Positions 42,538 to 45,862 of a stretch of 64,000 bases of DNA are shown here, in pieces (position 1 is the first letter of the stretch; each line of letters starts with the position of its first letter). The stretch is taken from the NCBI RefSeq assembly GCF_035084215.1, contig NC_090358.1, positions 11,532,001 to 11,596,000 of the forward strand, read 5' to 3'. Under the pieces are notes generated by a model, which made no database searches, was not told where the DNA came from, and saw nothing but the letters and a program-made list of their open reading frames with translations. Origin of the DNA: Heptranchias perlo. Lineage: Eukaryota. The position numbers were made by a program, and so were the translations under genes.

Positions 42538-45500
42538 TTTTTTTATTTTTTTTTTATTCGTTCACGGGATGTGGGCGTCGCTGGCAAGGCCGGCATTTAT
42601 TGCCCATCCCTAATTGCCCTTGAGAAGGTGGTGGTGAGCCGCCTTCTTGAACCGCTGCAGTCCGTGTGGTGACGTTTCTCCCACAATGCTGTTAGGAAGG
42701 GAGTTCCAGGATTTTGACCCAGCGTCAATGAAGGAGCGGCGATACATTTCCAAGTCGGGATGGTGTGTGACTTGGAGGGGAACGTGCAGGTGGTGTTGTT
42801 CCCATGCGCCTGCTGCCCTTGTCCTTCTAGGTGGTAGAGGTCGTGGGTTTGGGAGGTGCTGTCGAAGAAGCCTTGGCGAGTTGCTGCATTGCATCCTTTG
42901 GATGGTACATACTGCAGCCACAGTGCGCCGGTGGTGAAGGGAGTGAATGTTTAGGGTGGTGGATGGGGTGCCAATCAAGTGGGCTGCTTTATCTTGGATG
43001 GTGTCGAGCTTCTTGAGTGTTGTTGGAGCTGCACTCATCCAGGCAAGTGGAGAGTATTCCATCACACTCCTGACTTGTGCCTTGTAGATGGTGGAAAGGC
43101 TTTGGGAAGTCAGGAGGTGAGTCACTCGCTGCAGAATACCCAGCCTCTGACCTGCTCTCGTAGCCACAGTATTTATATGGCTGGTCCAGTTAAGTTTCTG
43201 GTCAATGGTGACCCCGAGGATGTTGATGGTGGGGGATTCGGCGATGGTAATGCCGTTGAATGTCAAGGGGAGGTGGTTAGACTCTCTCTTGTTGGAGATG
43301 GTCATTGCCTGGCACTTATCTGGCGCGAATGTTACTTGCCACTTATGAGCCCAAGCCTGGATGTTGTCCAGGTCTTGCTGCATGCAGGCTCGGACTGCTT
43401 CATTATCTGAGGGGTTGCGAATGGAACTGAACACTGTGCAGTCATCAGCGAACATCCCCATTTCTGACCTTATGATGGAGGGAAGGTCATTGATGAAGCA
43501 GCTGAAGATGGTTGGGCCAAGGACACTGCCCTGAGGAACTCCTGCAGCAATGCCCTGGGGCTGAGATGACTGGTCTCCAACAACCACTACCATCTTCCTT
43601 TGTGCCAGGTATGACTCCAGCCACTGGAGAGTTTTCCCCCTGATTCCCATTGACTTCAATTTTACTAGGGCTTCTTGGTGCCACACTCGGTCAAATGCTG
43701 CCTTGATGTCAAGGGCAGTCACTCTCACCTCACCTCTGGAATTCAGCTCTTTTGTCCATGTTTGGACCAAGGCTGTAATGAGGTCTGGAGCCGAGTGGTC
43801 CTGGCGGAACCCAAACTGAGCATCGGTGAGCAGGTTATTGGTGAGTAAGTGCCGCTTGATAGCACTGTCGACGACACCTTCCATCACTTTGCTGATGATT
43901 GAGAGTAGACTGATGGGGCGGTAATTGGCCGGATTGGATTTGTCCTGCTTTTTGTGGACAGGACATACCTGGGCAATTTTCCACATTGTCGGGTGGATGC
44001 CAGTGTTGTAGCTGTACTGGAACAGCTTGGCTAGAGGCGCAGCTAGTTCTGGAGCACAAGTCTTCAGCACTACAGCTGGGATGTTGTCGGGGCCCATAGC
44101 CTTTGCTGTATCCAGTGCACTCAGCCGTTTCTTGATATCACGTGGAGTGAATCGAATTGGCCGAAGACTGGCTTCCGTGATGGTGGGGATATCGGGAGGA
44201 GGCTGAGATGGATTATCCACTCGGCACTTCTGGCTGAAGATGGTTGCAAACGCTTCAGCCTTGTCTTTTGCACTCACGTGCTGGACTCCGCCATCATTGA
44301 GAATGGGGATGTTTGCAGAGCCTCCTCCTCCCGTTAGTTGTTTAATTGTCCACCACCATTCACGACTGGATGTGGCAGGACTGCAGAGCTTTGATCTGAT
44401 CCGTTGGTTGTGGAATCGCTTAGCTCTGTCTATAGCATGTTGCTTCCGCTGTTTAGCATGCATGTAGTCCTGAGTTGTAGCTTCACCAGGTTGGCACCTC
44501 ATTTTTAGGTACGCCTGGTGCTGCTCCTGGCATGCTCTTCTACACTCCTCATTGAACCAGGGTTGATCCCCTGGCTTGTTGGTAATGGTAGAGTGAGGAA
44601 TATGCCGGGCCATGAGGTTACAGATTGTGCTGGAATACAATTCTGCTGCTGCTGATGGCCCACAGCGCCTCATGGATGCCCAGTTTTGAGCTGCTAGATC
44701 CGTTCTGAATCTATCCCATTTAGCACGGTGGTAGTGCCACACAACACGTTGGATGGTGTCCTCAGTACGAAGACGGGATTTCATCTCCACGAGGACTGTG
44801 CGGTGGTCACTCCTACCAATACTGTCATGGACAGATGCATTTGCGACAGGTAGATTGGTGAGGACGAGGTCAAGTAAGTTTTTCCCTCGTGTTGGTTCGC
44901 TCACCACCTGCCGCAGGCCCAGTCTAGCAGCTATGTCCTTCAGGACTCGGCCAGCTCGGTCAGTAGTGGTGCTACCGAGCCACTCTTGGTGATGGACATT
45001 GAAGTCCCCCAACCAGAGTACATTTTGTGCCCTTGCTACCCTCAGTGCTTCCTCCAAGTGGTGTTCAACATGGAGGAGGACTGATTCATCAGCTGAGGGA
45101 GGACGGTAGGTGGTAATCAGCAGGAGGTTTCCTTGCCCATGTTTGACCTGATGCCATGAGATTTCATGGGGTCCAGAGTCAATGTTGAGGACTCCCAGGG
45201 CCACTCCCTCCTGACTGTATATCACTGTACCGCCACCTCTGGTGGGTCTGTCCTGCCGGTGGGACAGGACATACCCAGGGATGGTGATGGAAGAGTCTTG
45301 GACGTTGGCTGAAAGGTATGATTCTGTGAGTATGGCTATGTCAGGCTGTTGCTTGACTAGTCTGTGGGACAGCTCTCCCAATTTTGGCACAAGTCCCCAG
45401 ATGTTAGTAAGGAGGACCTTGCAGGGTCAACTGGGCTTGGTGTTTTGCCGTTGTCGTGTCCGGTGCCTCGTGGTCCGATGCCGGGTGGTCCGTCCGGTTT

Positions 45501-45862
45501 TATTCTTATTATGACTTTTCGTAGCGAGATTTTACAACTGAGTGGCTTGCTAGGCCATTTCAGAGGGCAATTAAGAATCAACCACATTGCTGCGGGTCTG
45601 GAGTCACATGTAGGCCAGACCGGGTAAGGGCGGCAGGCTTCCTTCCCTAAAGGACATTAGTGAACCAGATGGGTTTTTACGACAATCCGGTCGTTTCATG
45701 GCCATCATTACTGATACTGGTATTTTAATTCCAGATTTTTATTTAATTAATTGAATTTAAATTCGCCAGCTGCCGTGGCGGGATTTGAACTCATGACTCT
45801 GGATTTTAGTCCAGGCCTCTGGATTACTAGCCCAGTAACAAAACCACTATGCTACCGTACCC
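42538..45862 (-). mobile_element. Full-length single-ORF CR1-group LINE with tRNA-derived 5' head and poly(A) tail
   Basis: 5' gggtacggTAGCATAGTGG...GAGTTCAAATCC; APE-RT ORF; short 3' UTR with gggatgggc...gcccacatccc stem, AATAAA and A-tail. Confidence 0.92.
42610..45420 (-). CDS. APE endonuclease plus reverse transcriptase (about 930 aa, uninterrupted)
   Basis: LLTNIWGL, LTES, YRPP, GDFN, LDL, SDH (APE); [36 protein letters not shown] (RT). The track ORF starts at GTG 45390 but the frame is open to 45426. Confidence 0.93.
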   Translation of the reverse strand, partial: KVLLTNIWGLVPKLGELSHRLVKQQPDIAILTESYLSANVQDSSITIPGYVLSHRQDRPTRGGGTVIYSQEGVALGVLNIDSGPHEISWHQVKHGQGNLLLITTYRPPSADESVLLHVEHHLEEALRVARAQNVLWLGDFNVHHQEWLGSTTTDRAGRVLKDIAARLGLRQVVSEPTRGKNLLDLVLTNLPVANASVHDSIGRSDHRTVLVEMKSRLRTEDTIQRVVWHYHRAKWDRFRTDLAAQNWASMRRCGPSAAAELYSSTICNLMARHIPHSTITNKPGDQPWFNEECRRACQEQHQAYLKMRCQPGEATTQDYMHAKQRKQHAIDRAKRFHNQRIRSKLCSPATSSREWWWTIKQLTGGGGSANIPILNDGGVQHVSAKDKAEAFATIFSQKCRVDNPSQPPPDIPTITEASLRPIRFTPRDIKKRLSALDTAKAMGPDNIPAVVLKTCAPELAAPLAKLFQYSYNTGIHPTMWKIAQVCPVHKKQDKSNPANYRPISLLSIISKVMEGVVDSAIKRHLLTNNLLTDAQFGFRQDHSAPDLITALVQTWTKELNSRGEVRVTALDIKAAFDRVWHQEALVKLKSMGIRGKTLQWLESYLAQRKMVVVVGDQSSQPQGIAAGVPQGSVLGPTIFSCFINDLPSIIRSEMGMFADDCTVFSSIRNPSDNEAVRACMQQDLDNIQAWAHKWQVTFAPDKCQAMTISNKRESNHLPLTFNGITIAESPTINILGVTIDQKLNWTSHINTVATRAGQRLGILQRVTHLLTSQSLSTIYKAQVRSVMEYSPLAWMSAAPTTLKKLDTIQDKAAHLIGTPSTTLNIHSLHHRRTVAAVCTIQRMQCSNSPRLLRQHLPNPRPLPPRRTRAAGAWEQHHLHVPLQVTHHPDLEMYRRSFIDAGSKSWNSLPNSIVGETSPHGLQRFKKAAHHHLLKGN

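Follow-up and report, generated by a model that had tools for sequence, protein, structure and literature searches.

A tRNA-like head on the Zenon LINEs of sharks and rays, a possible internal RNA polymerase III promoter

Long interspersed elements (LINEs) are held to be transcripts of RNA polymerase II (Pol II), or co-transcripts of Pol I, and short interspersed elements (SINEs) non-coding transcripts of Pol III (PMC10886601, PMC2881922). SINEs, according to Kojima 2018, cannot encode a protein (PMC5786205). The Zenon LINEs of sharks and rays universally lack a first open reading frame (ORF1) and have a poly-A tail (PMC13343379). We analyzed a Zenon element on the minus strand of a 64,000-nt stretch of the Heptranchias perlo genome (GCF_035084215.1, NC_090358.1:11,532,001-11,596,000; hereafter the window, from whose start positions are counted). 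The element begins with a tRNA-like head that holds both boxes of an internal Pol III promoter.

This 5' sequence is present in elements already described. Seven consensuses from five elasmobranch species (SquAca_Zenon-1/2/3 and the Zenon-1 of CarCar, ScyCan, RhiTyp and HypSab; PMC13343379) start with the same head, A and B boxes included, when the first 400 nt are compared by eye; the hagfish and coelacanth Zenon consensuses have no A/B boxes in that interval (by eye). The 5' 400 nt of the window element closely match, by eye, those of elasmobranch Zenon (PMC13343379; a whale shark CR1-Zenon-like LINE, bioRxiv 10.1101/443036), and the five elasmobranch Zenon-1 consensuses measure 3.24–3.31 kb with, as here, a single frame for an APE endonuclease and a reverse transcriptase (RT), no ORF1 and poly-A. 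We found no difference in kind, and the window element is a member of this family. An earlier sequence-only reading had presented the missing ORF1 as a peculiarity; it is indeed missing, but its absence has already been published as characteristic of every Zenon LINE (PMC13343379). The family is likewise catalogued with this 5' sequence, though not with a tRNA or Pol III interpretation: tRNA, promoter, polymerase, Pol III and start codon do not occur in the main text of PMC13343379. Thus, the family and its lack of ORF1 are known, and the tRNA head, the avoidance of T-runs and the AUG-less start are undescribed in that source. In the literature searched, to which Repbase, Dfam, subscription journals and bioRxiv supplements did not belong, neither an autonomous Zenon with a tRNA head nor a Pol III LINE is described, and the tRNA-like heads of Ingi/Vingi elements, named as a precedent in the sequence-only reading, were not confirmed in the parts of it examined.

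By eye, the element has no likeness to the MetaSINE/DeuSINE body in bivalve Meta/Deu alignments (PMC4824008, supplement part 1 of 4); shark SacSINE1 carries an L2-type tail. The features of the window element are those of Zenon: a single APE-RT ORF, no ORF1, a poly-A tail and a match to a published consensus. Those of a canonical vertebrate CR1 are missing, as it has neither an esterase ORF1 of its own nor close kinship to esterase-bearing CR1. A quick RT tree, in which no labelled Zenon protein was included, separated it from the CR1 into which it is inserted (35% identity) and grouped it with environmental RTs (41–46% identity). With SINE2 elements it shares the tRNA-derived A/B-box head and the absence of TTTT from the family majority sequence (the window copy has one). 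However, SINE2 elements are short and non-coding, and this element is 3.3 kb long with a 973-codon selected frame; only its ~450-nt derivatives fit that description.

The LINE R2 is site-specific and has a restriction-like endonuclease. It is co-transcribed by Pol I and freed by a ribozyme, whereas Zenon here has internal boxes of its own and an APE endonuclease. Still, R2 resembles our proposal in its single ORF, its non-Pol II transcript and its non-canonical translation, possibly without an initiating methionine (PMC13188248, PMC2881922). SINE2 elements, including the bipartite Bov-tA and SINE2-1_ACar (PMC5786205, PMC4494074), share a tRNA A/B head, a body, a LINE-type tail and the lack of internal TTTT, but they are non-coding, and their tRNA head joined a LINE that had undergone deletion before; in Zenon here, it is a complete coding LINE that carries the head. 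Captured small-RNA promoter boxes that are kept while the RNA fold decays, as here, also occur in the Helenus, Ajax and Cassandra terminal-repeat retrotransposons in miniature (PMC10886601), which are non-autonomous long terminal repeat elements and, unlike Zenon here, encode no protein. Lepidopteran Zenon repeatedly gave rise by internal deletion to ORF-less derivatives made of its 5' and 3' ends, Persaeus, active beside the parent LINE (PMC6740152), as here. Persaeus is stated to be without tRNA homology or Pol III promoter and has T-runs at its 5' end, whereas the derivatives described below inherit the tRNA head and look like ordinary SINEs.

The head and the frame as a family-wide unit

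We searched the 3.25-Gb H. perlo genome with the head plus the ORF start and scored 40 of 4,402 candidates, all 97–100% identical across the head-ORF junction. The same head was joined to the same frame in 39 of 39 other close copies with unrelated flanks, and 36 of these reached the A-tail. The majority sequence, built from 37 copies, is 3,307 nt long with a frame of 973 codons, and the closest copies diverge from it by 1.1% on average. Two copies, L058 and L067, have an identical 5' flank and probably represent a duplicated locus rather than independent insertions.

Since these 39 are the closest copies, we also drew an unselected sample, the first 30 of 7,760 exact genome matches to a 23-mer at the endonuclease start. 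Of these, 20 extended into the first 40 nt of the head and the other 10 were truncated inside the same 5' untranslated region (UTR); their flanks were mutually unrelated as displayed, and no formal ORF1 search of those flanks was made. A 23-mer near the ORF end had 65,688 matches, so the ORF start is present in about an eighth of the copies, which on these match counts is ordinary 5' truncation. The junction is therefore not unique to this locus but occurs in thousands of copies genome-wide. The family is young and was recently active, and the frame is open from its N-terminal extension to the normal stop in 7 of 36 other full-length close copies; recent activity had been read from the window copy, which itself is probably inactive (see below).

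Next to the tRNAs of the same genome, the majority head aligned best with tRNA-Gln(CTG), with 53 of 73 columns identical and a score of 64.3 against a shuffle maximum of 46.8. The panel comprised 20 distinct genomic tRNAs of the Gln, Thr and Cys types only, chosen partly by target, and does not settle the donor. When the first 450 nt were shuffled 5000 times, an A+B box pair of this kind arose 6 times. The head looks like a tRNA-Gln whose anticodon arm has been doubled: the anticodon stem and the B box equal those of tRNA-Gln, and the first loop that of tRNA-Thr(AGT). A short duplication noticed earlier between the boxes corresponds to these two anticodon-like arms. tRNA-Thr(AGT) was rejected as the donor because, although its loop matches, tRNA-Gln(CTG) scored higher in 3 of 4 heads tested. 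The element has a sharp 5' end 8 nt ahead of the A box, which in 30 of 37 copies is conserved to within 2 nt, with 6 or more of those 8 nt present.

The head is no longer a tRNA in shape. Neither Rfam nor ARAGORN with its default settings recognized an RNA family, tRNA or otherwise, in the element; at a relaxed threshold ARAGORN called the head a tRNA. Its folding was not exceptional (z 0.13) and the acceptor stem is unpaired (by eye). Across the elasmobranch consensuses the A and B boxes persist while acceptor-stem pairing and the cloverleaf fold are not kept. Upstream of non-shark relatives from metagenomes, an A+B pair was present in 1 of 42. In that single case (L139:180-1165) a tRNA-Gly-like A/B stretch precedes an esterase-like ORF1 and an ORF2 with 16 T-runs; because of these T-runs, the stretch is probably an adjacent tRNA or SINE. 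The H. perlo genome also holds large tandem arrays of tRNA genes, with tRNA-Gln at ~3.1-kb spacing in one contig (C38:2.56-8.86 Mb) and Cys-dominated arrays at ~2.36-kb spacing in another (C23:1.8-18.4 Mb).

In an unselected sample of 30 of 6,322 matches to the head core, 12 copies continued into the ORF and 16 were joined to the tail of the family itself (14 identified by BLAST and 2 by eye); the other 2 had no recognized tail. A separate SINE combining this head with a foreign tail was found in none of the 30. Genome-wide, a head-tail junction pattern had 786 exact matches with varied breakpoints (against 1 for a control). Young short forms carry the diagnostic letters of the young family, and the old short majority matches the letters of an old long copy. 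These relationships fit a repeated origin of the short forms by internal deletion, as for Persaeus, and in the ancestor either the SINE or the headed LINE may have come first. In a second recurrent deletion type beside the dominant one (L301, L311, L306 and L308), the head near position 301–326 is followed by the final ~65 nt of the tail.

T-run avoidance and a selected frame without AUG

We scanned the coding strand for TTTT, the Pol III terminator. The family majority has none in 3,307 nt and 31 of 37 copies are free of it; the window copy has a single, private one directly after the A box. TTT is also depleted, roughly threefold, with 7 occurrences in the majority against 26.5 expected from mononucleotide shuffles and 15.9 from dinucleotide shuffles (P 0.003). 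Within the ORF, 5 TTT were seen against 14.6 expected under synonymous-codon shuffles (P 0.001–0.003). This deficit is specific to T, since AAA, CCC and GGG stand at 1.02, 0.93 and 0.91 of the same expectation. The host CR1 majority has 9 runs of four or more T in 3,073 nt and its TTT stands at 0.85 of expectation. Non-shark relatives have 2–31 T-runs in all 24 examined (of 80 loci), including three of equal T content. At about position 121 (window 45742), individual copies have recurrently acquired T4–T9 by mutation of the AT-rich spacer: 2 of 37 young copies, 1 of 18 older copies and 1 of 16 unselected ones, and in the wider spacer 4 of 10 old short forms. No majority carries such a run.

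The majority frame opens at element position 332, and its first in-frame AUG is codon 250, behind the endonuclease. We compared 27 of the 30 unselected copies, dropping three that were truncated or very old. Seven substitutions were common to at least 13 of the 27; read in the ORF frame all seven are synonymous, and read in the frame of an overlapping upstream ORF (uORF) all are non-synonymous. Three of the seven lie in the Arg-rich, AUG-less extension, one of them at a CpG. Recurrent indels in the extension measure 3, 15 and 3 nt, with the caveat that the 15-nt one may be favored by a local repeat, while 3 of 8 single-copy indels break the frame. Between the young and the older majority, the extension differs by 3 synonymous and 0 non-synonymous changes, the endonuclease by 9 and 1 and the rest by 14 and 11, making 26 and 12 overall. 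These substitution patterns show purifying selection on the frame, including the part before the endonuclease. Synonymous bias and in-frame indels in the extension thus suggest an AUG-less start of protein synthesis before about position 390. Scanning is disfavored by the nine upstream AUGs that the family majority has across its whole 5' UTR.

Several ways of starting translation were rejected. A frameshift from a 76-codon uORF (position 276) conflicts with the shared substitutions, which are non-synonymous there, and with an early stop in 3 of 5 species' consensuses (by eye). For stop read-through from an upstream in-frame AUG-GCC-UAG, there is a second stop in the young majority and the frame is lost in 2 of 5 consensuses (by eye). 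As for a structured internal ribosome entry site (IRES) or a ribozyme like that of hepatitis delta virus (HDV) in the 5' UTR core, folding there was not above that of shuffles (z −1.07); no ribozyme model was run.

Accounts of transcription and their rivals

The account that we favor, with modest confidence, is Pol III transcription from the internal boxes, TTTT-free passage through 3.3 kb, translation independent of cap and AUG, and target-primed reverse transcription in cis at the tail. TFIIIC would bind the A and B boxes and Pol III would start at the first base of the element. Without TTTT the polymerase would cross all 3.3 kb and end at the first T-run in the flanking DNA. The uncapped RNA would load ribosomes between element positions 332 and ~390, and the encoded protein would bind the 3' tail in cis. 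Because the promoter would be of the SINE type, any internal deletion that keeps head and tail would be a SINE at once, which would explain the short forms. The sequence-only reading, which proposed a SINE-headed, self-mobilizing element, is in this respect partly supported: the head-ORF unit was borne out, and Pol III transcription is somewhat more likely than not. The broadest version of the idea, in which elasmobranch Zenon is autonomous and transcribed end to end by Pol III from a tRNA-Gln-derived promoter held since the shark-ray ancestor, is translated uncapped without AUG and acts as a SINE factory by deletion, is tentative and in our judgment slightly more likely to fail than to hold.

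If true, a 3.3-kb Pol III RNA encoding its own RT would break the polymerase split between LINEs and SINEs and would offer an example in nature of a Pol III transcript being translated. A SINE could then be born by deleting part of a SINE-headed LINE, the reverse of fusing a tRNA to a LINE tail. For annotators there is a caution that thousands of "SINE" matches in shark genomes are LINE 5' ends.

Several observations weigh against Pol III transcription of a translated RNA. RNAs made by Pol III are considered poor messengers, and type-3 Pol III promoters yield mRNA via Pol II (PMC6023835). An AATAAA lies in the 3' UTR, as expected for a Pol II element. In Lepidoptera, Zenon contains T-runs and lacks the tRNA head, so the protein works without this head. 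The lack of excess folding in the 5' UTR core means that no IRES structure is shown. Taken alone, the complete absence of TTTT is weak evidence: P is 0.009 with a mononucleotide null but 0.06–0.09 with dinucleotide and codon nulls, and the host CR1, used as a control, likewise has fewer TTTT than expected (4 versus 7.7, P 0.061). A majority of 40 older copies again has no TTTT, but it is only 48 substitutions from the young majority and therefore no independent replicate of the T-run test.

Alternatively, the head may be the captured 5' end of a SINE that now works as a Pol II promoter, lies on one or binds TFIIIC as an insulator; the element would then be a normal Pol II LINE whose translation is unconventional. 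The promoters of LINEs belong to Pol II and are often replaced (PMC2881922), some Pol III promoters recruit Pol II (PMC6023835), and both the AATAAA near the tail and the marginal TTTT statistics under strict nulls agree with this account. However, it does not predict a T-specific deficit of TTT, a capped mRNA would meet the nine upstream AUGs and no in-frame one, and both boxes are kept across sharks and rays. We regard it as unlikely, though well worth keeping in view.

Transcription and translation could also be split, with Pol III making the template RNA and the protein supplied in trans by host transcripts, either Pol II read-through or spliced ones, that provide a start codon. Tens of thousands of copies exist and no uncapped RNA would have to be translated, yet the head-bearing lineages' own frame is under purifying selection, which fits action in cis; we consider the division of roles improbable. 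We give a shade less credence still to the head as a processing signal, at which RNase P would cut read-through RNA at tRNA +1 and set the 5' end, like the HDV-like ribozymes of R2 and RTE. The element's 5' end does fall at tRNA +1, self-cleaving 5' ends occur in six LINE clades (PMC5786205) and ARAGORN's relaxed call suits a tRNA substrate. On the contrary, the missing default-threshold call and Rfam match, the unremarkable fold and the unpaired acceptor stem do not, and the TTT deficit would be left unexplained. A chance SINE insertion ahead of a LINE truncated at its 5' end, or a chimera that includes the CR1 ORF1 lying upstream, suggested by the esterase ORF1 450 nt upstream and by a short head-plus-tail form within the window, is refuted for practical purposes by the same junction in every close copy and in five other species and by the CR1 frame that resumes past the A-tail in a duplicate locus.

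The window copy and its surroundings

The minus-strand layout of head, A and B boxes, APE-RT frame, 3' UTR and A-tail (Table 1) is present as first read from the sequence. The predicted ORF of ~930 aa proved to be a frame of 938 codons with Pfam matches for both domains (APE, residues 8–211; RT, residues 493–741), but it has no AUG start: its first Met is residue 215 and no ATG lies ahead of the endonuclease. A structure model of the protein (pLDDT, predicted local distance difference test, 86) has human L1 ORF2p as its best fold match. A hairpin is predicted in the 3' UTR as claimed, but it is no more stable than those of shuffled sequences (z −0.39).

Table 1. Features of the Zenon element and related sequences in the window
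Feature	Position	Strand	Evidence or remark
Whole LINE	45862-42540	minus	Zenon family member, family length ~3.3 kb
tRNA-derived head, element 5' end at 45862	45770..45862	minus	tRNA-Gln(CTG) alignment
A box (5' element of a type-2 internal Pol III promoter)	45844..45854	minus	sequence; present in Zenon consensuses of five elasmobranch species, by eye
Private TTTT (family: TTAT), would-be Pol III terminator	45840..45843	minus	also in segmental duplicate
Two tandem anticodon-like stem-loops	45835-45819 and 45814-45799	minus	5-bp stem as in tRNA-Gln; first loop as in tRNA-Thr(AGT)
B box	45781..45792	minus	letters identical to genomic tRNA-Gln B box; kept across species
Remaining 5' UTR: AT-rich spacer, then ~150-nt core	45532..45769	minus	core nearly invariant across sharks and rays
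Arg-rich N-terminal extension of frame, no AUG	45427..45531	minus	open in family majority and in duplicate
APE endonuclease and RT frame, 938 codons stop to stop	42610..45426	minus	ORF list, Pfam
3' UTR, 53 nt, AATAAA and predicted hairpin	42557..42609	minus	common to short derivatives
A-tail, also breakpoint of local segmental duplication	42538..42556	minus	sequence, duplicate comparison
Host CR1: esterase ORF1 (46762-46310) and ORF2 start, outside element	45863..46762	minus	interrupted by insertion
Old SINE-like short form: head joined directly to family's last ~110 nt	40899..41326	plus	
Old partial head copy, 79% identity	1978..2237	minus	

Compared with the family majority, the window copy has a private CGA>TGA at 45429-45427 (codon 35), which closes 35 further upstream codons that are open in the majority, so that its frame begins at 45426. 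The private TTTT lies at element +20, right behind the A box; hence this copy is not an intact Pol III unit, and its transcript would terminate at +20. With this terminator and a frame cut at codon 35, the window copy is probably dead.

A local segmental duplicate of the locus lies 64.5 kb upstream. It is 99.2% identical over at least 5.8 kb (window 42546-48369), with the element's A-tail as the breakpoint, and has the same TTTT. In the duplicate, the host CR1 still has its 3' part and the Zenon frame is open over 973 codons; as the TGA at codon 35 is absent there, the stop of the window copy arose after the duplication. Because the CR1 ORF2 resumes directly past the Zenon A-tail in the duplicate, the element must have inserted into a host CR1, to which the esterase ORF1 (Pfam) belongs. 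The window locus lost the 3' part of this CR1 at the duplication breakpoint. No target-site duplication was found at this Zenon insertion; across the close copies such duplications are short or absent, with 6–8 nt in 5 of 33 (0.28 expected).

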